Source of the DNA: Eubacteriales bacterium
GTDB taxonomy: Bacteria; Bacillota; Clostridia; Oscillospirales; CAG-272
Direction of reading: 5' to 3'
DNA length: 64,000 bases
NCBI GenBank assembly: GCA_045124505.1
Contig: JBGVLZ010000090.1
Coordinates: 24,507-88,506, forward strand
In this document: piece by piece, positions 17,767 to 53,004 of the stretch
Numbering within the stretch: the first letter of the stretch is position 1
Layout of the letters: each line of letters begins with the position of its first letter
The notes under the pieces: model-generated
What the model was told of the DNA's origin: nothing
The model's input: the letters and a program-made list of their open reading frames with translations, nothing else
Database searches by the model: none
Translations under genes and position numbers: made by a program

Positions 17767-18000
17767 CAAAAAAACGCTTCCGTCTCCTTGTTGAACCAAA
17801 GAGACGAAAACGAAAATAATCACAGTTTCCGCGGTACCACTCTTCTTCATCCCGCACGGGATGCACTTTAGATGCTATCACATCTTAACTCTGTCACGGG
17901 AGTTTCCCGTCTGCCACTACTTGATATTTTCATGCCAGCCGCTCCGCGGTGAGTTCAGCAAAATTTTCTCAGTGTCTTGCACCGCCCGACACCTCTCTGT
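17767..18000 (-). promoter_or_regulatory. T-box riboswitch, specifier CUC (Leu)
   Basis: Read on the minus strand: AGAGAG...GGTGCAAG stem I, then the specifier-loop context GAA-CTC-A (plus 17950-17956). The T-box sequence is AGAGTGGTACCGCGG (plus 17829-17840). The terminator is CGTCTC..GAGACG plus a U-run (17767-17806). Confidence 0.85.
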
Positions 18001-18050
18001 ATGAAAAAAGCTTTGCGTACTATTCCGCATCCTTGCGTTTATTGCAAGCT

Positions 18051-22089: not shown

Positions 22090-22184
22090 GAGGTTTAAAG
22101 AATTTTTTTAATTTTTTTATTTCACGGCAAAATGACCGCTTCTGATTTCCGAAACGGTCATGTTTGCTCATTTAATATAGGCTT

Positions 22185-23393
22185 TTATTCAGATGCTTTG
22201 AAATTATATACAGGCTTCAATTTGCAGATGATGTCCGCTGTCGGCGCAATATTTCCAATTATTTCAGCAATACTTTTGTATGCCATGGGTGACTCATCAA
22301 GTGTGTCGGGAACAACACAGGTTGAATATATACCTGCCATTTCAGTTTCGTATTCAGCCATTGTAAGACGCTCAAACGCGGCAGAGCGTGACATAAGACG
22401 TCCTGCTCCGTGAGGCGCTGAAAAGTTCCAATCCTCATTTCCTTTACCTATACAGATGAGTGAGCCGTCACGCATATTAATGGGAATAAGGAGCTTTTCG
22501 CCCGCTTTGGCAGACACCGCACCTTTGCGGAGAATCATCTCATTTACATCGATATAGTTGTGTATGGTCTGAAATGTTTCAATGGGTGTGAAATTGCAAT
22601 ATTCAATGATCTTCTCCGCTATTTTTGCACGGTTTCTTTCAGCAAATTTCTGACAAATATCCACGTCGTGAAGATAATCATCCATAAACGAACCGTAGAG
22701 AAAGCAAAGATCACGGGGAAGTGTGGGCTCTTTTGCATGAAATTCATTTTCAAGCGCTTTCAGCGCACCCTGTATTTCGCACCGTCTGCCCTGTTCTTTG
22801 TATGTTCGTATAATTTCATCACGCTGTTTGAAATATTCCTCTTTTCCCGAATTAAGGTCAATGGCAATATCTTGATAAAATTCTGCTACCTGTGTGCCGA
22901 GGTTACGGCTTCCCGAATGTATCACGAGATATTTTCCGCCGTTTTCATCCTCGTCGATTTCAATGAAGTGATTTCCGCCTCCGAGCGTTCCAATCGATCT
23001 TTCAAGACGCTTTGTGTCCTTGAGATTTCTGTAACAGCAAAGAGTTGTAAGGTCAAATCTTTCCTGTCTGCCTTCCCATACGTTTCGCCCCGAGGGAATT
23101 GAATGTGATATCGTATCGACCTTTTCAAAATCGATATCGATGTTTCCGAGGTACACTGTATACATTCCGCATCCGATGTCAACACCGACCATTGAAGGAA
23201 CGATCTTATCCGTTACGGTCATCGTTGTGCCGATCGTACAGCCCTTGCCTGCGTGAACGTCGGGCATTATTCTTATTTTAGAGGATGCAAATGCTTCTGT
23301 ATCGCATACAGCCTTTATTTGCTCAAATGCGCCGTCCTCAACAGTTGTTGCAAAGCACTTGGCTGTGTTGAAATTTCCTTTTATCTCTAACAT
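22185..23393 (-). CDS. rtcB: RNA-splicing/repair ligase RtcB (3'-phosphate/5'-OH ligase)
   Basis: RtcB motifs MPDVHAGKGCTIG, GGGNHFIE, HSGSRNLG, APHGAGR. 402 aa. Confidence 0.92.
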   Translation of the reverse strand: MLEIKGNFNTAKCFATTVEDGAFEQIKAVCDTEAFASSKIRIMPDVHAGKGCTIGTTMTVTDKIVPSMVGVDIGCGMYTVYLGNIDIDFEKVDTISHSIPSGRNVWEGRQERFDLTTLCCYRNLKDTKRLERSIGTLGGGNHFIEIDEDENGGKYLVIHSGSRNLGTQVAEFYQDIAIDLNSGKEEYFKQRDEIIRTYKEQGRRCEIQGALKALENEFHAKEPTLPRDLCFLYGSFMDDYLHDVDICQKFAERNRAKIAEKIIEYCNFTPIETFQTIHNYIDVNEMILRKGAVSAKAGEKLLIPINMRDGSLICIGKGNEDWNFSAPHGAGRLMSRSAAFERLTMAEYETEMAGIYSTCVVPDTLDESPMAYKSIAEIIGNIAPTADIICKLKPVYNFKASE

Positions 23394-23415
23394 ATAATTT
23401 TCCTTTCATACTGTA

Positions 23416-23458
23416 CAGCCGGGCGGTGTAAGTGTATACAAAACAATGCGCCCGGCTG
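23416..23458 (-). other. 10-bp GC-rich hairpin in the SPFH-rtcB spacer (no U-run)
   Basis: CAGCCGGGCG (23416-23425) pairs with CGCCCGGCTG (23449-23458). Confidence 0.4.
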
Positions 23459-23464
23459 ATACAT

Positions 23465-24568
23465 TCAGGCATTGTTTGTGCTTAAAATAGCCGTAAGGCT
23501 GCTCAGAATATTTCCGTTGCTGTCTACGGAAATATTTCCGACATTTTCGCAAATTTTCTCTATATATTCCAGCTCCTTGAGCTTGTAAAGTGTTTTGTTT
23601 TCGTCCATCAGCTTTGCTGTATTTAATAATGAACGTGTGGAAGCGACCTCCTCACGGCGTGTAATTACATTCGCCTGCGCACGTTTTTCGGCAACAAGCA
23701 CGGTGTTCATTATTTCACGTATTTCACCGGGGAGGATAATGTCCTTTACATCGGCACTTTTGATCTCAACAAACAGCTCTTTTTCCTTTGCTTTCAATTT
23801 TTTATATACAAACTCGGATATCTGCTCCTTATTTTCAAGGATTTCATCGAGCTTATATTTACCAACGTATTCACGCAGGAAAAGCTGGGATGAAACGTGT
23901 ATTTGTTCTGCAAAATCGTCTATTTCCGTCGCTATTTTCACATAGTCGGTAATACGGTAGTTACAGACAAAATTTATGCGCAGAGATACTTTATCCGATG
24001 TCAATATTTCCTGCCCCTGAATATTCATCTGTAAAAGACGTGTGTCTATAAGCTCAGCATCAACCTTCACGGGTGTGTTCCAGAAGTAATATGTACCCAC
24101 ATCTAAAATTCGCTGTAGCTTTTTGTTGAAGTAAAGCCTTGCTTTCTGGTATTCGGCAACCTCTACTTTTGTATAGTAAATTTCGGGTATATTTGAAAAT
24201 ATGTATTCGGGTACAGATTCATCGACTGTCGGATCTGAAATGTCAATGATTTTGAATTCGTGACTGTCAAAGACCTTCCAGAAGGCATACTTCCCACTTG
24301 TAAGCACGGAATGAAACTTGCCGTTTACATAGTGAAGTGCAAGCTCTTCATCTTTCGCCTCCGTCACTGTCACACATTTTGCTATGTTTTTATCCGACAA
24401 CAGTGTTTCAAGGGAACATTTATCTGAAACAATAGGATATTTTAAATCCGAAATTTCAATTTCACTGCCGCCGAAAACGGTATATTTACCCGCACCGAGC
24501 AATTTTATATATTTTCCGTTTTTAAAAAGAAAGCCTCTTTGATTTTCGTTTATTATAATTCTTTTCAT
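23465..24568 (-). CDS. SPFH/band-7 domain protein (cytoplasmic-type, three N-terminal GKY..FW repeats)
   Basis: The C-terminal half has an SPFH-like pattern (TSDKVSLRINFVCNYRITD...EIREIMNTVLVAEKRAQANVITRREEVASTRSLLNTAKL). No N-terminal TM segment is seen. Confidence 0.8.
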   Translation of the reverse strand: MKRIIINENQRGFLFKNGKYIKLLGAGKYTVFGGSEIEISDLKYPIVSDKCSLETLLSDKNIAKCVTVTEAKDEELALHYVNGKFHSVLTSGKYAFWKVFDSHEFKIIDISDPTVDESVPEYIFSNIPEIYYTKVEVAEYQKARLYFNKKLQRILDVGTYYFWNTPVKVDAELIDTRLLQMNIQGQEILTSDKVSLRINFVCNYRITDYVKIATEIDDFAEQIHVSSQLFLREYVGKYKLDEILENKEQISEFVYKKLKAKEKELFVEIKSADVKDIILPGEIREIMNTVLVAEKRAQANVITRREEVASTRSLLNTAKLMDENKTLYKLKELEYIEKICENVGNISVDSNGNILSSLTAILSTNNA

Positions 24569-24807
24569 ATATTTAATTCCTTTCTAAAACTTAATGGATT
24601 TCTGACCTGTTTTGCTGTATCCGAAGCATTCGGAATATAGTCTTGCAAACAGCTTTGACATCGTCTTTAAGCTCACGGGGAAAACCTTTTGCAAGCTCTT
24701 CTGTAAGCATGTTCTTTTTTGATCTGAATAAAAAACGCATACCGTTACCTCAAGATTTGTTTGCGTTACCATTTTTGCAAAAGCGGCGGCTGAAATCTTG
24801 AGTGATG

Positions 24808-25085
24808 CCGCAGTACCACGGAAAATTCGGTGATGCTTTGGAAAACACGGTATCTGTTTTCAGACAAGGCACGCTTTTGCTCGATGATAACCAATCTTTA
24901 ATTAAATATTCTCTTACACAAAAGCGGACCTTTGTGTAATATCTGCGTCCCGAAGGACAAAATCCAAACCGCTGGCATATACCTTTTGAGTATACGGCGG
25001 GATTCGAACCCGCGAAATGAGAGCTTAAAAGGCTCAATGCAAAATTACATCAGCATACACTTCGGAATATCCCCGTGCACTGCGG
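24808..25085 (-). ncRNA. candidate structured RNA (Y-RNA-like / tRNA-like-module RNA, or structured 5' leader of the SPFH-rtcB transcript)
   Basis: A 13-bp long-range helix (plus 25073-25085 with 24808-24821) has one G-U that is valid only on the minus strand. A second helix pairs 25052-25060 with 24830-24837. It encloses a tRNA-shaped module, a UUCG-capped hairpin (24947-24958) and an 8-bp hairpin (24915-24938). There is no convincing ORF or RBS in the 610-bp gap. Confidence 0.35.
24989..25058 (-). other. tRNA-like module inside the candidate RNA (perfect T-arm, aberrant D-arm)
   Basis: Minus strand: acceptor-like GTATGCT/CGTATAC; anticodon-like arm with loop CTTTTAA; T-arm GCGGG-TTCGAAT-CCCGC (plus 24997-25013). 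The D-arm lacks GG, position 8 is not U, and there is no CCA. Confidence 0.4.
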
Positions 25086-25158
25086 TGAAGAATTGCTCAA
25101 ACACACGCTTTGTAACCTTGCAAGCATATTTTACCACCGCATTTCATGTTTTTCACGG

Positions 25159-25191
25159 AAAAAAAGCTGCGAACTTAATTAAAGTCCGCAG
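25159..25191 (-). terminator. intrinsic terminator of the WYL gene pair
   Basis: Minus strand CTGCGGA...TTCGCAG 7-bp stem overlapping the stop codon, followed by CTTTTTTT. Confidence 0.5.
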
Positions 25192-26087
25192 TTTAACTGT
25201 TTTTTGAGTTTTTCAATAACTGATTTTCTGAATGATTCAGGGGCAGTAACCTCAACCATCGGCCCGAAAGAAAGTATCCTGATTACCATTTCGGGTTCAT
25301 CATCGTGAACGTATTTTATCCTGACAAGATAATTTTTCTTGTCAAGCTTCTCAGCTTGCTTTTCAAAATGGGCAAAGTGAAGCATAAAGCGTTCAAGTGT
25401 ATTTCTTTCATCGTGTATCTTCACTGTAACGGTATTATATGCAGCATCACGTTCTTTTCCGACTGAAATTCTTTCACCTGTGTAATGGTTACAAGACATT
25501 ATTTTTGCAAGATTTACAGTAGGCACGTGGCGGCGTCCTGCTGTTATAACTCTGAATTTGTCGTCCTTTTCGGAATATTCAAGTCTTACAGGTCTGCATC
25601 TGACAAACATTGTGTTGCCTTGGCGGTTAATCATTTCAAATTTTATTTGTGACTTTTTCCGTATAGCCTCAAGAATTACCCTGAACTGTCTTATGTATTC
25701 TTCATTTTCAAACGGATCGCCGTCACCGTATTTATCGTAGATGTAATAATCCTCGGAAGTAAAAAGAGGTTCAACTCCGTCAAGGTCGGGAAAATCAATA
25801 TCAAATAATTTTATTCTCGGATCAAGTGAAATTGCTTTAAGCCATCTTTTCTGAAGAGTTGTCAGGGGCATTGTGGGCTTGTGCTCAAGCGGTGTTGTCA
25901 CGTCACTGTGTACAAGTTGCCATTTTTCGTTTTTGAATGAAGGAATAATAGTCAGCACGCTTTCACCGAAAGCACGGTCATAAACTACTTTTTGTAATTC
26001 CTTTTCGGAGCATTCGCCTTCAATGATCTTGGATATGATATCGGCAACTGTGTTATAATATGCAGAATAAAGCTCGCTGAATATCAT
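25179..26087 (-). CDS. WYL-domain regulator-like protein (PafC-like partner)
   Basis: 302 aa. The segment NTMFVRCRPVRLEYSEKDDKFRVITAG...VNLAKIMS fits the WYL Sm-like barrel pattern. It overlaps the upstream WYL gene by 4 nt. Confidence 0.65.
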   Translation of the reverse strand: MIFSELYSAYYNTVADIISKIIEGECSEKELQKVVYDRAFGESVLTIIPSFKNEKWQLVHSDVTTPLEHKPTMPLTTLQKRWLKAISLDPRIKLFDIDFPDLDGVEPLFTSEDYYIYDKYGDGDPFENEEYIRQFRVILEAIRKKSQIKFEMINRQGNTMFVRCRPVRLEYSEKDDKFRVITAGRRHVPTVNLAKIMSCNHYTGERISVGKERDAAYNTVTVKIHDERNTLERFMLHFAHFEKQAEKLDKKNYLVRIKYVHDDEPEMVIRILSFGPMVEVTAPESFRKSVIEKLKKQLNCGL

Positions 26088-27343
26088 GCTTCATCCTCCT
26101 TTGTGATGCCGTAAATACGGTACATTTCTTCAAGATCCTTTTTAAATTCGTTTTCGACTGTGCGGTTTGAAAAATTAAGCTGTACTATACGGCAGATAAA
26201 TGTTCTTATCCACGGCTTCATTTCGCTCGTGTCATATACGTCGGCAGAAAAACGGTATGTGTTTTCATCAAGCTTTTCAACGGTGCCTATGCGTTTTTCA
26301 CGTTCAAGACGCCTTATTATGTAGTCTTCTCCGTCTTCGATTTTCACGGTAAATTCCACGTGCTCAAGCTGTTCGTTACCCCATTTGTTGCGTTTTACGC
26401 TGACACCCCACATTTTGCTTTGCATTCTGTCAAGCTCACGCCTGAGCTCGTCAAATCTCGGTGTCGGTTCTTCAAGCTTTACATTTGATAAATAGTCAAT
26501 ACGGTAACTGTTAAATGAATTATAATCGGGTAAATACGCAAAAAGGTGCTGTCTGCCGCTTTGCACGCTGATAAATATACGTAATGGCACTATTCGGTTT
26601 TTCTTCGGAAGGTCTTTACGTCTGCTCATATTGGATACTGTCACGGCACGTTTTTCTCTCATAGCTGTGAAAAGCGTTGCAAGCACACCGCTGTCAATTG
26701 CACTCGTTATATAATGGTGCTTGAATGTGAAAGTATCTGTGTCAGATTCCTGCTTGTCAAGTATGAACGAACCTATGACACCGCAGGGTGCAACCTCGGA
26801 AAAGTAATGAAGAGCATCGTTGATCTTCGAAATATCGGTGCTTTCCGTTCTGCTGTAATATACATTTCTTCCTTCTTTTTCTGCGGTTATGATACCTGCT
26901 TCACAGTATTCCTTCAGTTTCTTGCGGACGGTGGATTCATCAAATACCATTGGATGACTGAATCCCGAAAGATATTTTTTATCAATTTCTTTCAGAATTT
27001 CGGAAACGGTGCGCTTTACAGAAGGTTCATACAAAATATCAAAAATTATAAAATGGAGTGTTATATCCCCATCGGTAAAGCTTTTCGCTTTCCAGGCATT
27101 GTATAAAGGGTTATGTCTGATCGTGCGGCTGTCAATTGAGATGAAAACGTTTTTTCCCTCCTGTGTGCGGACGAATCCCATGTGATCGCCGAGCCAGCTT
27201 TCAATACGTCTTCGCTCATCATCATATGAGCGTGCGCTTTTCGTCTGATATTCCTCACGGCTTTTAAAACCGTAAACGTAAAAATCACGCATGTAAGCCC
27301 TTATCTTTTCAAAATTCTTAATAAGCTCGCTGTATGATGACAT
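26084..27343 (-). CDS. wHTH + WYL + WCX-type transcriptional regulator
   Basis: wHTH (TVSEILKEIDK...STVRKKLKEYCEAGIITAEKEGRNVYYS). WYL block (NRIVPLRIFISVQSGRQHLFAYLPDYNSFNSYRIDYLSNVKL). Start is at MSSYSELIK behind GGGGTGA. Confidence 0.7.
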   Translation of the reverse strand: MSSYSELIKNFEKIRAYMRDFYVYGFKSREEYQTKSARSYDDERRRIESWLGDHMGFVRTQEGKNVFISIDSRTIRHNPLYNAWKAKSFTDGDITLHFIIFDILYEPSVKRTVSEILKEIDKKYLSGFSHPMVFDESTVRKKLKEYCEAGIITAEKEGRNVYYSRTESTDISKINDALHYFSEVAPCGVIGSFILDKQESDTDTFTFKHHYITSAIDSGVLATLFTAMREKRAVTVSNMSRRKDLPKKNRIVPLRIFISVQSGRQHLFAYLPDYNSFNSYRIDYLSNVKLEEPTPRFDELRRELDRMQSKMWGVSVKRNKWGNEQLEHVEFTVKIEDGEDYIIRRLEREKRIGTVEKLDENTYRFSADVYDTSEMKPWIRTFICRIVQLNFSNRTVENEFKKDLEEMYRIYGITKEDEA

Positions 27344-27371
27344 TTTTTCACCCCATATATATAATACATAT

Positions 27372-27400
27372 ATTATAACGTCACCGTCGGATAATGTCAA
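27372..27400 (-). promoter_or_regulatory. sigmaA-like promoter of WYL pair
   Basis: TTGACA - 17 nt - TATAAT on the minus strand. Confidence 0.6.
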
Positions 27401-27422
27401 TATCGTTTGTAAAACAATGCTG

Positions 27423-27451
27423 TTGACATTACAATGAAAAGTATGTATAAT
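27423..27451 (+). promoter_or_regulatory. sigmaA-like promoter of PHP gene (back-to-back with WYL promoter)
   Basis: TTGACA - 17 nt - TATAAT. Confidence 0.6.
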
Positions 27452-27482
27452 AAAACAGCAAAAATATTAAAGGCGGGGAATT

Positions 27483-28334
27483 ATGGATAAATTTTGTGAT
27501 CTTCATATACATTCAGTCTTTTCCGACGGAACTTGTAAACCCGAAGAAATAATAGACGAGGCTTTGAAAATGGGGCTTTCAGCCGTAGCACTCACTGACC
27601 ATAATACGGTTGACGGTCTTTACGATTTTACATCTTATGCTTCCGATAAGAATATCGATATTGCACCCGGTGTGGAATTTTCTACAGACTATAACGGGGT
27701 TGAGCTTCATATACTCGGACTTTTCATGAAACAGAAGTATTTTTCCCAAGTAACAGAGCTTATGGAGAAGCTTCACCTTGAAAAGGAAAAAAGCAATATC
27801 CGACTTATAGAGTCTTTGAGGCGTGAAGGTATCATACTCGACTATGATGAAATGAAAAAGTTGACACCCAAAGGAATGATAAACCGTGCTCACGTTGCAG
27901 AGCAGATGATGAAAAAGGGTTATACCTCATCCATCAAGGAAGGGTTTGAAAAATATCTCGGTGTGTCGTGCGGACATTATAAAATTCCCAAAAGACTTAC
28001 CGCTTCGTATACTATTGATTTCATACATTCCGTGGGTGCGGTATCGGTTCTTGCACATCCGTTTTTAAGTCTTAACGAAGACGGCGTTTTACGTTTCTTA
28101 AACTCACCCGACAGCAAAGGACTGAGCGGTATGGAGTGTTATTATTCAACAAATGACGATGAAACGACCGCAAAATCCCTGTGTATAGCCGAAAGATTCA
28201 GTCTTATACCAAGCGGCGGAAGCGATTTTCACGGGGAAAGAAAGCCCGATATAACTCTTGGCACAGGAAAAGGAAATCTTCAAATACCTTATGAATGTTA
28301 TATCAAATTGAAAGAAAAAGCAGATAACTATTGA
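27483..28334 (+). CDS. PHP-domain metal-dependent phosphoesterase (TrpH/YciV family)
   Basis: DLHIHSVFSDG, ALTDHNTVDG, ELHILG, LAHP and GGSDFHG motifs. 283 aa, as in TrpH/YciV. Confidence 0.85.
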   Translation: MDKFCDLHIHSVFSDGTCKPEEIIDEALKMGLSAVALTDHNTVDGLYDFTSYASDKNIDIAPGVEFSTDYNGVELHILGLFMKQKYFSQVTELMEKLHLEKEKSNIRLIESLRREGIILDYDEMKKLTPKGMINRAHVAEQMMKKGYTSSIKEGFEKYLGVSCGHYKIPKRLTASYTIDFIHSVGAVSVLAHPFLSLNEDGVLRFLNSPDSKGLSGMECYYSTNDDETTAKSLCIAERFSLIPSGGSDFHGERKPDITLGTGKGNLQIPYECYIKLKEKADNY

Positions 28335-39979: not shown

Positions 39980-40235
39980 TAGATTAATAGGTTATGATGA
40001 AGGCAGTACGGTAGGATCAATGTTTACAGAGAGCCGCATAATGGTGCAAGTGCGGTAACAAATTTTACCTGAAGAACACTTCGGAGCCTGCGGAAGAACG
40101 CCTTTTGGTTATTAGAACCGCACGTTGATCGCGAAAAGATTTAATGAAGAGGGCCGTTTTACGGTCAATTTGGGTGGTATCGCGGAAGAGGAGCCTTTCG
40201 TCCCATATTATGGGGCGGAAGGCATTTTGTTTTTC
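39980..40235 (+). promoter_or_regulatory. T-box riboswitch, probable specifier AAC (Asn)
   Basis: AGAGAG (40028-40033)...GGTGCAAG. The specifier context is CTGAAG-AAC-A-CTTCGG (AAC at 40075-40077). The T-box sequence is AATTTGGGTGGTATCGCGG (~40168-40186). The terminator GCCTTTCGTCCC/GGGGCGGAAGGC is followed by a T-run. Confidence 0.85.
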
Positions 40236-48289: not shown

Positions 48290-48551
48290 ATGTAAACACT
48301 GTGAAGAAAACGGCAGAAAAAGGTTTTCGCAGAGAGTCGGCGGCAGGTGTAAGCCGATAAAACTGATTTCGGTAAGCCACATCATTTCTGAGTGGGAGAG
48401 GTGAAGACAGTAGCTTCTCACGTTAAGCCGCGTTAAGGCAAAGGGCTTTGTGATGAGTCCGAAGTGGCATTTTTATGCAAATTGAGTGGTACCGCGGATC
48501 ATTCCGTCTCAAGGTTGTTAAAGGACTTTGAGACGTTTTTTGTTTTCACGC
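48290..48551 (+). promoter_or_regulatory. T-box riboswitch, tentative specifier AUC (Ile)
   Basis: AGAGAG..GGTGTAAG. The lower stem CAGAAA/TTTCTG is the same geometry as the Phe leader, with AC-ATC-A immediately 5' of TTTCTG (ATC at 48381-48383). The T-box sequence is AAATTGAGTGGTACCGCGG (48479-48497). The terminator is CGTCTCAA..TTGAGACG plus a T-run (48505-48551). Confidence 0.8.
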
Positions 48552-52689: not shown

Positions 52690-52892
52690 TAAATTCGAAC
52701 CTTTGGGAATTCAGTGAAATCGTTCACTTTCACTCACGGCGAAATAATTCACTTGGTGAATTGTGAATTTGATGCTGCCGCATCAAGTGAAATTAAATCC
52801 ACCAACTCGCCGTCGAGGCGAATTTCACACGCCGCAGGCGTATTTCATATTGCAAAGCAATATTTCATCCACCCGTAAGGGTGGATTTAATT
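52690..52892. repeat. array of ~7 different short hairpins separated by (A)TTTCA(C/T)/GAAAT spacers
   Basis: Hairpins read directly: AGTGAA..TTCACT, AATTCAC-TTGG-GTGAATT, TGATGC..GCATCA, CGCC..GGCG, ACGCC-GCA-GGCGT, ATTGC-AAA-GCAAT, ATCCACCC-GTAA-GGGTGGAT. Confidence 0.55.
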
Positions 52893-52928
52893 GAAAATGA
52901 CAGATTCCTGTCGGAATCTGTCATTTTC
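52893..52928. terminator. 16-bp perfect hairpin directly 3' of tRNA-Thr (terminator for the minus-strand tRNA)
   Basis: GAAAATGACAGATTCC-TGTC-GGAATCTGTCATTTTC. Confidence 0.6.
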
Positions 52929-53004
52929 TGGAGCTGCTAGACAGAGTCGAACTGTCGACCTCATCCTTACCAAGGATGTGCTCTGCCAGCTGAGCCATAG
53001 CAGC
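52929..53004 (-). tRNA. tRNA-Thr: tRNA-Thr (anticodon GGU), CCA-encoded
   Basis: The minus strand GCTGCTATGGCTCAGCTGGCAGAGCACATCCTTGGTAAGGATGAGGTCGACAGTTCGACTCTGTCTAGCAGCTCCA folds as a cloverleaf. It has a 7-bp acceptor, a D-arm GCTC/GAGC with GG, anticodon loop TTGGTAA, and T-arm GACAG-TTCGACT-CTGTC. Confidence 0.9.

Follow-up and report, generated by a model that had tools for sequence, protein, structure and literature searches.

A conserved WYL, structured RNA, SPFH and RtcB cassette from Clostridia: a predicted RNA-repair module with a permuted tRNA-like element

Introduction

Here, we describe a cluster of four genes and one large non-coding RNA in a 64,000-nucleotide (nt) stretch of DNA from a Eubacteriales bacterium (Clostridia; Oscillospirales; CAG-272; GenBank assembly GCA_045124505.1, contig JBGVLZ010000090.1, positions 24,507 to 88,506 of the forward strand), which we call the window. 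The genes encode two regulators of the WYL type (WYL1 and WCX2), an SPFH/Band-7 protein and an RtcB RNA ligase, and a structured RNA of 377 nt occupies most of the gap between the WCX2 and SPFH genes. On balance, we favor reading the locus as an RNA-repair cassette that is complete in itself, has spread horizontally and belongs to the 'Band-7/SPFH + tRNA-like RNA + RtcB' class, working in the manner proposed below. Coordinates are positions within the window unless a related locus is named, and the four module genes all lie on the minus strand between 22185 and 27400.

Burroughs and Aravind are said to have proposed, in the abstract of a 2016 paper, SPFH/Band-7 modules that have a new tRNA-like molecule as scaffolding cofactors. 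A preprint (10.1101/312249) credits Burroughs and Aravind 2016 with the combination of RtcB, Band-7 and a predicted 'band 7-associated tRNA', or b7a-tRNA. In PMC9503650, WYL transcription factors are said to regulate RNA repair pathways, and Burroughs and Aravind 2016 is cited for such factors. A 2026 paper notes that the rtc locus of Pseudomonas aeruginosa has an SPFH gene inside it. Because of the published prediction, the core of our locus is a member of a known, computationally defined class. An earlier, sequence-only reading of the window had offered the module as undescribed; that can no longer be maintained, since its core was predicted in 2016 and the link between WYL factors and RNA repair is also in print. 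The literature that we searched contained no experimental work on Band-7/tRNA-like-RNA/RtcB systems. The size and three-domain fold of the RNA, its permuted topology in this family, the invariant box at the promoter, the accessory gene and the predicted vault-like architecture of the SPFH protein appeared in none of Rfam, RefSeq annotation and the accessible literature, and several structural details of the cassette may be new.

The anatomy given by the sequence-only reading held up well. All five genes that it had named (the four of the module and a divergent PHP-domain gene) were found in their places with profile support, as were a 610-bp gap (24569-25178) and a strong hairpin between the SPFH gene and rtcB. 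A consensus scan matched both the TTGACA-17-TATAAT promoter and the terminator that it had assigned to the WYL pair. It had also noted that Ro60, RtcA, RtcR and archease are missing from the locus; among the open reading frames (ORFs) within ~8 kb on either side of the module, we likewise found no Ro60/Rsr, RtcA, RtcR or archease.

Gene order and distribution

Relatives of the locus were collected by scanning the SPFH protein against one genome per bacterial species. This gave 80 loci, mostly from gut and rumen Clostridia (Oscillospiraceae, Acutalibacteraceae and others), with one from Anaerovoracaceae and a few from Spirochaetales. The order WYL1-WCX2-gap-SPFH-RtcB recurs among them by tblastn, even where the WYL proteins are 44-47% identical to those of the window. 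Of the loci counted as informative, which have the gap RNA and sufficient flanking sequence, 38 of 42 carry the WYL pair upstream and 45 of 49 carry RtcB downstream. The conservation of the WYL pair, structured RNA, SPFH gene and rtcB as a neighborhood, which the sequence-only reading had made its first test, is therefore confirmed, and since the order recurs between otherwise unrelated flanks, we regard the neighborhood as a compact cassette moving between genomes. Three or four loci keep the RNA and the SPFH gene with no adjacent RtcB, which makes the RNA and the SPFH protein, rather than the ligase, the most tightly linked parts of the cassette.

Clustering of the ORFs of these loci yielded six recurring families: the four module genes, an accessory protein (9 loci) and an RlaP nucleotidyltransferase (PF10127; 7 loci). 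Neither RtcR nor RtcA recurs among the ORF families. The RlaP-type gene follows RtcB in L026 (6728-7495) and in 6 other loci. A nucleotidyltransferase gene stands directly after the SPFH gene, without RtcB, in L066 (7119-7886), L082 (7131-7922) and L083 (7128-7913), that is, in L066, Escherichia coli and Citrobacter. RlaP is a marker of RNA-repair operons and links the module to RNA repair.

Distant SPFH homologs (<57% identity; L064, L066, L069-L079) stand in other contexts, without RtcB or WYL genes. No SPFH homolog was found in INPHARED phages or IMG/VR, and a conserved 25-nt motif from the 3' domain of the RNA had no match in either collection. The 'plasmid' matches were mostly chromosomes or megaplasmids.

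Structure of the gap RNA

Across the related loci, the gap from WCX2 to the SPFH gene always measures 440-670 nt, or ~1100-1180 nt where an extra gene is inserted. In 62 related loci (~57 full-length matches), a hidden Markov model (HMM) built from 43 gaps detects the gap RNA upstream of the SPFH gene, and it has one match in the window; in relatives the RNA is ~380-550 nt long. Conservation covers the whole gap, beyond any tRNA-sized piece, and reaches the ribosome-binding site of the next gene, and a consensus scan found no terminator-like site between the RNA and the SPFH gene. For these two reasons, the predicted promoter described below would drive a single transcript, with the gap RNA at its 5' end followed by the SPFH gene and rtcB. 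From these contents, the gap of the window can be divided into a terminator, a promoter, the 377-nt RNA and a gene remnant. The sequence-only reading had placed a tRNA-like structured element here; a tRNA-like module is indeed present, but it is part of an RNA far larger than a tRNA, and it does not form a canonical cloverleaf. Rfam scans of the gap RNA, both by gathering score and by E-value, returned no family and only a local T-arm match.

The RNA is predicted to have three parts: a 5' three-way domain, a permuted tRNA mimic and a 3' multi-helix domain. In the 5' domain, helix P1 joins the 5' UGCAAGG to UUUUGCA (25044-25038) in the window; in nearly all sequences, these first bases pair with CUUGC ~85 nt downstream. 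P1 forms in nearly all gap RNAs and its extension covaries, as does, clearly, one of the hairpins that it encloses (GGUGCAC..GGA/UCC..GUGUAUGC). The 3' domain, ~125 nt in the window and up to ~180 nt in relatives, is closed by a long-range helix and contains nested helices around conserved GCCUUG..GAUACCGUG and CAGCCGC strings.

The strongest evidence for this fold comes from an alignment of the 3' half, from the T-arm to the end of the RNA, in 44 loci, whose structure was derived with RNAalifold. Compensatory double changes occur in 42 of the 51 pairs. Standard pairs fill 92.8% of the cells, compared with 33-50% when the partners are slid by 1-3 columns, and the covariation score is 0.49, compared with 0.09-0.16 after sliding; 0 of 500 shuffles reach the observed values. 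The closing helix itself varies, for example, from GUUAUCAU/AUGAUAAC to GCAAUUGC/GUAAUUGC and to GCGGCCGC/GCGUCCGC.

A circularly permuted tRNA-like module

Between the 5' and 3' domains lies a module that carries a perfect tRNA T-arm, an anticodon-like arm, a closed acceptor-like hairpin and a D-like arm (Table 1). Neither ARAGORN nor the Rfam tRNA model called a tRNA in the gap. A canonical cloverleaf, in which the strand after the T-arm would pair with the upstream GUAUGC, was considered and rejected: its central pair is broken in 19 of 27 sequences, and only 2 cells are compensatory. With the permuted arrangement, 92.3% of cells are paired, compared with 21-46% when the partners are slid, and five of the seven acceptor pairs covary. 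Since the cloverleaf pairing is unsupported and the permuted pairing supported, we conclude that the module mimics tRNA in circularly permuted form and that its acceptor stem is closed, which makes aminoacylation impossible. Abundant G-U pairs fix the RNA on the strand of the genes. A covariance model of the module has one match in the window and also finds it in distant loci that have no RtcB. In most loci that have the anticodon-like arm, its loop reads CUGUNAA, with the 'anticodons' GUC (10 loci), GUA (5) and GUU (4); in the window the 'anticodon' is UUU.

Two further observations concern this part of the RNA. A copy of the string GUAU(C)GCCAG stands on either side of the module, at 25052-25062 and 24972-24983 on the minus strand, and each copy could pair with the strand after the T-arm; for the upstream copy, 83% of cells are paired, without covariation. 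The repeat may be a relic of a duplication or reflect an alternative conformation. In L026, L033, L035, L036, L050 and other loci, a second T-loop hairpin (GGGGUUCAACUCCCC) and extra stems lie ~40 nt upstream of the main T-arm, and this subgroup looks like it has a partial second tRNA-like unit.

The SPFH protein

The SPFH protein belongs to a large family, with more than 7,600 clusters at 90% identity (E <= 1e-20), and carries the name 'slipin family protein' in the source annotation. Residues 1-178 form three sequence repeats, whose pairwise scores of 38-54 compare with a shuffle mean of ~20 (standard deviation 4). No transmembrane segment was found, the highest 19-residue Kyte-Doolittle mean being 0.79, and the protein is predicted to be soluble.

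An AlphaFold model based on 20 close homologs shows three β-units, an α/β SPFH domain and a long helix. Its mean predicted local distance difference test score (pLDDT) is 75, rising to ~88 over the N-terminal 180 residues, and its predicted template modeling score (pTM) is 0.56. Foldseek against the PDB aligned ~230-265 columns of the model with stomatin (2e-13) and with the HflK/C, prohibitin, erlin and flotillin cages. Major vault protein was matched at E = 6e-10 over 414-467 columns that include the N-terminal repeats, with a template modeling score of ~0.4. In the model, the protein thus has the domain order of major vault protein, namely β-repeats, SPFH domain and long helix. Three relatives (P0002, P0004 and P0052) are nearly twice as long, at ~638 aa, and are 44-59% identical across the full query; fusion or duplication may account for them.

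The WYL pair, its promoters and the 21-nt box

WYL1 was found in 45 loci at 44-86% identity. Its longest ORF starts with TTG at 27400, and the ATG at 27343 agrees with all relatives. The PADLOC WYL model covers residues 212-406 of WYL1 (3e-12) and residues 128-296 of WCX2 (2e-10). As this single model spans WYL plus WCX in both, we take both to be WYL+WCX proteins. For WCX2, Pfam WCX is detected in 21 of 23 relatives, and hhalign against the WYL1 profile gives a weak match across the WYL+WCX region (E = 0.002, 14% probability). A helix-turn-helix (HTH) was detected in WYL1 only, and weakly, with Pfam, NCBIfam and PADLOC; models of the Csa3-type HTH match its residues 98-185. The start of WCX2 overlaps the stop of WYL1 by 4 nt.

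The sigma-70-type promoter of the pair matches the consensus at 12 of 12 positions. A second perfect TTGACA-17-TATAAT stands back to back with it at 27423-27451 on the plus strand. The 170 nt upstream of WYL1 are unrelated from locus to locus, and this promoter is specific to this genome, not to the module. Downstream of the pair, the 5' arm of the terminator-like hairpin falls inside the last WCX2 codons.

A conserved, putatively regulatory sequence is found on the other side of the pair. A 21-nt box is near-identical in ~57 loci, including loci that have no WYL pair immediately upstream, and overlaps the 3' arm of the terminator. It is a candidate regulator-binding or UP-like site. An extended -10, TGGTAAAAT, follows 20 nt after the box at 25136-25128 and is conserved across loci, and of the -35 only GTG is conserved. 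The scan match for this predicted promoter of the RNA-SPFH-rtcB unit is GTGAAA-17-TAAAAT with TG.

RtcB

The RtcB motifs MPDVHAG, DIGCG, GGGNHFIE, HSGSRNLG and PHGAGR align with RtcB of Pyrococcus horikoshii (4dwr), and the metal-binding and GMP-histidine motifs (D/H, C, NHF, HxGSR and HGAGR) are intact. The protein scores 151 bits against a cut-off of 407 bits for the NCBIfam equivalog, which places it in a separate, short clade. Its gene starts 71 nt 3' of the SPFH gene.

Relatives in Proteobacteria

Full-length SPFH homologs are present at ~33% identity in E. coli, Citrobacter, Burkholderia and Photobacterium. The Citrobacter freundii locus runs from a divergent rtcR through a 449-nt gap to the slipin gene and then a nucleotidyltransferase gene. 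The gap contains a sigma-54-like TGGCAC-N5-TGGCA and then a T-arm, UGGGUUCGAUUCCCA, directly followed by a closed hairpin; this appears to be the topology of the module in the window. Rfam found only a local T-arm match in the Citrobacter gap, and the sequence HMM of the gap RNA found nothing past the T-arm in the enterobacterial gaps. The E. coli relative likewise has a T-arm and closed hairpin, and the covariance model of the module gives a weak match at the corresponding position there (16 bits, E = 0.005 in 26 kb). In E. coli, the gap, slipin and nucleotidyltransferase unit sits between yjbD (DUF3811) and lysC. Of 5426 complete genomes, 1625 (~30%) contain at least 80% of the unit, and most of the others have partial matches; RefSeq annotates no RNA in the gap.

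Because rtcR lies beside the SPFH gap in Citrobacter, the WYL pair of Clostridia occupies the position that RtcR has in Enterobacteria. The sequence-only reading had cast the WYL pair as a sensor and regulator, and a position equivalent to that of RtcR, a CARF-type activator, fits this role. By this analogy, the pair probably acts as the regulator of the module.

Coordinates and other features of the locus

The features of the cassette are listed in Table 1.

Table 1. Features of the cassette and its divergent neighbor, in order of position in the window
Feature	Position	Strand	Evidence or description
RtcB RNA ligase, 402 aa	22185..23393	-	Pfam RtcB 2e-57
GC-rich intergenic hairpin	23412..23463	-	10-bp core, no U-run; -27.6 kcal/mol, z = -3.1
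SPFH/Band-7 ('slipin') protein, 367 aa	23465..24568	-	Pfam Band_7 4e-28; PDB stomatin 1e-15
Remnant of accessory gene	24584..24740	-	Internally deleted and frameshifted; intact gene 183-227 aa
Structured non-coding RNA, 377 nt	24748..25124	-	nhmmer E = 4e-71; covariation
3' domain of gap RNA	24765..24891	-	Closing long-range helix GUUAUCAUC (24891-24883) with AAAUGGUAAC (24774-24765)
Circularly permuted tRNA-like module	24964..25035	-	Pair counts; covariance model 88.5 bits
D-like arm	24975-24964	-	CCAG/CGGU/UUGG (family CCAG/UGGN/UUGG); loop carries GG of D-loop
Closed acceptor-like hairpin	24995-24977	-	6-7 bp; cap is a GNRA or A-rich loop
Perfect tRNA T-arm	24997-25014	-	CGCGGGTTCGAATCCCGC; follows anticodon-like arm after 5-7 unpaired nt
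Anticodon-like arm	25035-25021	-	4-5 bp, 7-nt loop (25031-25025), CUUUUAA in the window
5' domain of gap RNA	25038..25124	-	Helix P1 encloses hairpins 25108-25082 and 25081-25052
Predicted promoter of RNA-SPFH-rtcB unit	25128..25156	-	Weak -35 GTGAAA, 17-nt spacer, extended -10 TGGTAAAAT
Invariant 21-nt box	25154..25174	-	GTTCGCAGCTTTTTTTCCGTG; ~36-56 bases upstream of predicted RNA start
Terminator-like hairpin of WYL operon with T-run	25158..25191	-	Hairpin 25191-25167; 10-bp stem, then CTTTTTTT
WCX2, partner protein, 302 aa	25179..26087	-	Pfam WCX 2e-5; WYL-like and WCX domains
WYL1, regulator, 419 aa	26084..27343	-	Pfam WYL 5e-7; winged-helix region ~residues 100-185, WYL, WCX
WYL-pair promoter, sigma-70-type	27372..27400	-	TTGACA-17-TATAAT; 12/12 in consensus scan
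PHP-domain gene	27483..28334	+	Pfam PHP 2e-17; divergent from WYL1

The ~160 extra bases 3' of the gap RNA in the window, which are missing from most relatives, are the remnant of the accessory gene. Intact copies occur in 9 loci; there, the gene follows the RNA and precedes the SPFH gene, except in L043, where it separates the SPFH gene from rtcB. By comparison with intact copies (L013, L023 and others), the remnant keeps the N-terminal ~35 codons, MRFLFRSKKNMLTEELAKGFPRELKDDVKAVC, and, in another frame, the C-terminal LYSECFGYSKTGQKSIKF. On an identical public contig (L081), the gene caller reports a 49-aa stump. The accessory protein has no family match in Pfam, NCBIfam or PADLOC.

Other genes are inserted beside the RNA in L056 (264-1889), L068 (between 2420 and 4729) and L005 (2845-4481). 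One insert encodes a DUF2828+DUF7788 protein between the WYL pair and the RNA, and elsewhere an ADP-ribosylglycohydrolase and a weakly matched vWA protein are found. Comparison of the DUF2828 protein with solved structures by sequence was uninformative.

In close relatives, the intergenic hairpin 5' of rtcB is retained and shows compensatory changes, and loci with spacers of only 19-25 nt lack it; it may stabilize or process the mRNA. Another strong hairpin lies 3' of rtcB (22118-22177, minus strand; -25.3 kcal/mol, z = -5.0) and is followed by four U. It was not called by the terminator scan and is probably the end of the transcription unit.

The module is flanked in the window by housekeeping genes (DAHP synthase, an ACT protein, an AMP-forming ligase, signal peptidase and a Cna_B adhesin). 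ARAGORN finds a single tRNA in the window, tRNA-Thr(GGU), at 52929-53004 (minus strand), and a Gut-1 RNA (86 bits; 52817-52893, minus strand) lies immediately 3' of its gene. Three T-box leaders score above the Rfam gathering score, at 17797-18042 (minus strand), 39985-40208 (plus strand) and 48292-48514 (plus strand). The idea that the tRNA fragment in the gap is the attachment site of an island bounded by tRNA-Thr was rejected, because the whole gap is conserved and covarying; housekeeping genes and T-boxes also lie between the two.

Proposed mechanism and alternatives

In the mechanism that we propose, the WYL pair, as a PafBC-like heterodimer, would sense a damage signal, likeliest RNA fragments or 2',3'-cyclic-phosphate ends, and would activate or de-repress the conserved promoter through the 21-nt box. 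The gap RNA would be excised from the transcript, or persist as a stable 5' piece, and would bind an SPFH oligomer, much as Y RNA binds Ro60 and vault RNA is held in vaults. The resulting particle may present or shelter broken tRNA-like substrates, or the ligase itself, and RtcB would reseal the 2',3'-cyclic-phosphate/5'-OH breaks left by ribotoxins.

Several results weigh against this reading. [quoted passage not shown] Among the informative loci, 4 of 42 have no upstream WYL pair and 4 of 49 no downstream RtcB. The former 4 still keep the 21-nt box, which may then be a site for RNA polymerase or some other factor. The likeness to vault protein is at the level of the fold and comes from a medium-confidence model, and no Pfam Vault repeat was found in the SPFH protein. 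Similarity of the WYL proteins to the solved structures of PafB, PafC and BrxR is marginal by sequence (E = 0.25-0.8), and the profiles detect no HTH in WCX2, unlike in PafC.

The RNA could instead be mainly a cis-acting leader of the SPFH-rtcB mRNA, in the style of a riboswitch or T-box, in which a bound ligand, protein or damaged tRNA would control elongation or translation, rather than a free cofactor. It runs on into the next gene's ribosome-binding site without an intervening terminator, and its large, strongly covarying domain resembles riboswitch aptamers. The GUAU(C)GCCAG copies offer an alternative partner for the strand after the T-arm, and Firmicutes do use tRNA-sensing T-box leaders, three of which lie in the window. 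That alternative pairing lacks covariation, however, and no conserved terminator/antiterminator or sequestered Shine-Dalgarno was found. The form of the RNA also does not depend on which gene follows it, the accessory gene or the SPFH gene, and YrlA is likewise embedded in an operon, yet is a free RNA. We therefore consider a leader unlikely, though it is the most serious of the rivals. We rate as improbable the notion that the tRNA mimic is bait for anticodon nucleases. In this scheme, a ribotoxin would cut the anticodon-like loop and the cut ends would signal to the WYL pair, or the mimic would simply soak up the toxin, with RtcB resealing both bait and tRNAs. The loop identities speak for it: the 'anticodons' GUC, GUA, GUU and UUU correspond to the queuosine-family tRNAs and tRNA-Lys, the targets of colicin E5-type and PrrC-type nucleases. 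The closed acceptor stem, which excludes aminoacylation, and the proposal that WYL factors sense RNA with cyclic ends would also suit a bait. Yet many RNAs of the family have no anticodon-like arm or have other hairpins in its place, and the loop counts are not independent because the compared loci are related. Salmonella YrlA is not cut by a nuclease that cleaves tRNAs, the module is absent from the phage collections and there are no toxin genes nearby.

Two further explanations fare worse. A lone T-arm with a short stem resembles the 3' fragment of a tRNA, ARAGORN calls no tRNA and the gap does hold one real gene remnant, so that the tRNA-like piece might be a decayed tRNA or attachment-site scar, with the rest of the gap junk and the neighborhood fortuitous. 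Against this stand 377 nt conserved in 62 loci of distant genomes with dozens of compensatory changes, and neither an integrase nor a matching full tRNA is nearby; we find this explanation barely credible. Very little more credence can be given to the divergent PHP phosphoesterase as a working part of the module, for end-healing or as an exonuclease, that shares a control region with the WYL pair. The sequence-only reading had included the gene in the unit and assigned it to the TrpH/YciV family; its perfect promoter is back to back with that of WYL1, and its product is most like the RNase RNM and pAp phosphatase families. The scores, however, are far under the NCBIfam cut-offs (138 vs 375 bits for RNase RNM and 136 vs 400 bits for pAp phosphatase), which does not support the family assignment. 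Not one of the 80 loci has the gene beside the module, and every locus has a different sequence upstream of WYL1. The PHP gene is therefore an accidental neighbor, and its co-regulation with the WYL pair in this one strain is possible.

Relation to known systems

The cassette that we favor as an RNA-repair module is closest to the computationally predicted Band-7/b7a-tRNA/RtcB systems, in which RtcB likewise stands beside a Band-7 protein and a tRNA-like RNA, with RlaP as an optional partner. It differs from them in that tRNA finders do not call its tRNA-like part, which accounts for ~70 nt of the 377-nt RNA. YrlA shows the same order, as given in 10.1101/312249, of T-arm, loop-capped acceptor stem and D-arm, with no free CCA end. 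It is also encoded in an RtcB operon and paired with a ring- or cage-forming RNA-binding scaffold protein. In our locus, however, the partner is an SPFH protein, with no Ro60/Rsr within ~8 kb. The two ends of the RNA do not form an anticodon or Ro-binding stem, separate hairpins flanking the module instead, and the RNA is 3-4 times longer, has an extra covarying 3' domain and matches no Rfam family.

In RtcR-RtcA-RtcB systems, RtcB is again under a dedicated ligand-sensing regulator encoded just upstream, but here RtcR, the sigma-54 promoter and RtcA are replaced by a WYL pair and a sigma-70-type promoter. WYL1, with its weakly detected HTH, has the HTH-WYL-WCX build of PafBC, BrxR, CapW and DriD, and, as in PafBC, two adjacent WYL+WCX genes appear to be translationally coupled. 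The target promoter of PafBC has a poor -35 and a conserved upstream element, as does the promoter predicted here. Apart from the marginal similarity and the second subunit without a detectable HTH noted above, the difference from these regulators is that the regulated unit is a predicted RNA-repair cassette and not a set of DNA-repair or defense genes.

The eukaryotic vault shares with the SPFH protein, as predicted here, and its RNA the β-repeats, an SPFH-like shoulder, a long helix, solubility and a small RNA with a T-arm-like box. Here, there are three repeats rather than nine, there is no Vault match at the sequence level, the RNA is far larger and a cage is only predicted. A bolder reading is that the ~380-550-nt RNA is a new large RNA class, in which a permuted tRNA mimic is linked with a conserved 3' domain, and the dedicated partner of a soluble, vault-like SPFH cage, the two forming a 'mini-vault' that encloses or organizes tRNA repair by RtcB and is turned on by a WYL heterodimer sensing RNA damage. 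We put this forward tentatively, as a possibility on the doubtful side.

Significance

The gap RNA is unannotated in RefSeq and is easily taken for junk or for a broken tRNA. The locus and its 60-odd relatives now provide a parts list with coordinates, an RNA structure backed by covariation and a candidate operator. The swap of regulators, from the WYL pair here to RtcR in Proteobacteria, points to the input signal, and the predicted structure links a soluble bacterial SPFH protein to the vault shell. It has long been an open question what vaults, vault RNAs and bacterial Y-like RNAs do, and a compact bacterial module with a homolog in many E. coli strains would make it testable. If the mini-vault reading is true, the module would be an experimentally reachable bacterial counterpart of the eukaryotic vaults.

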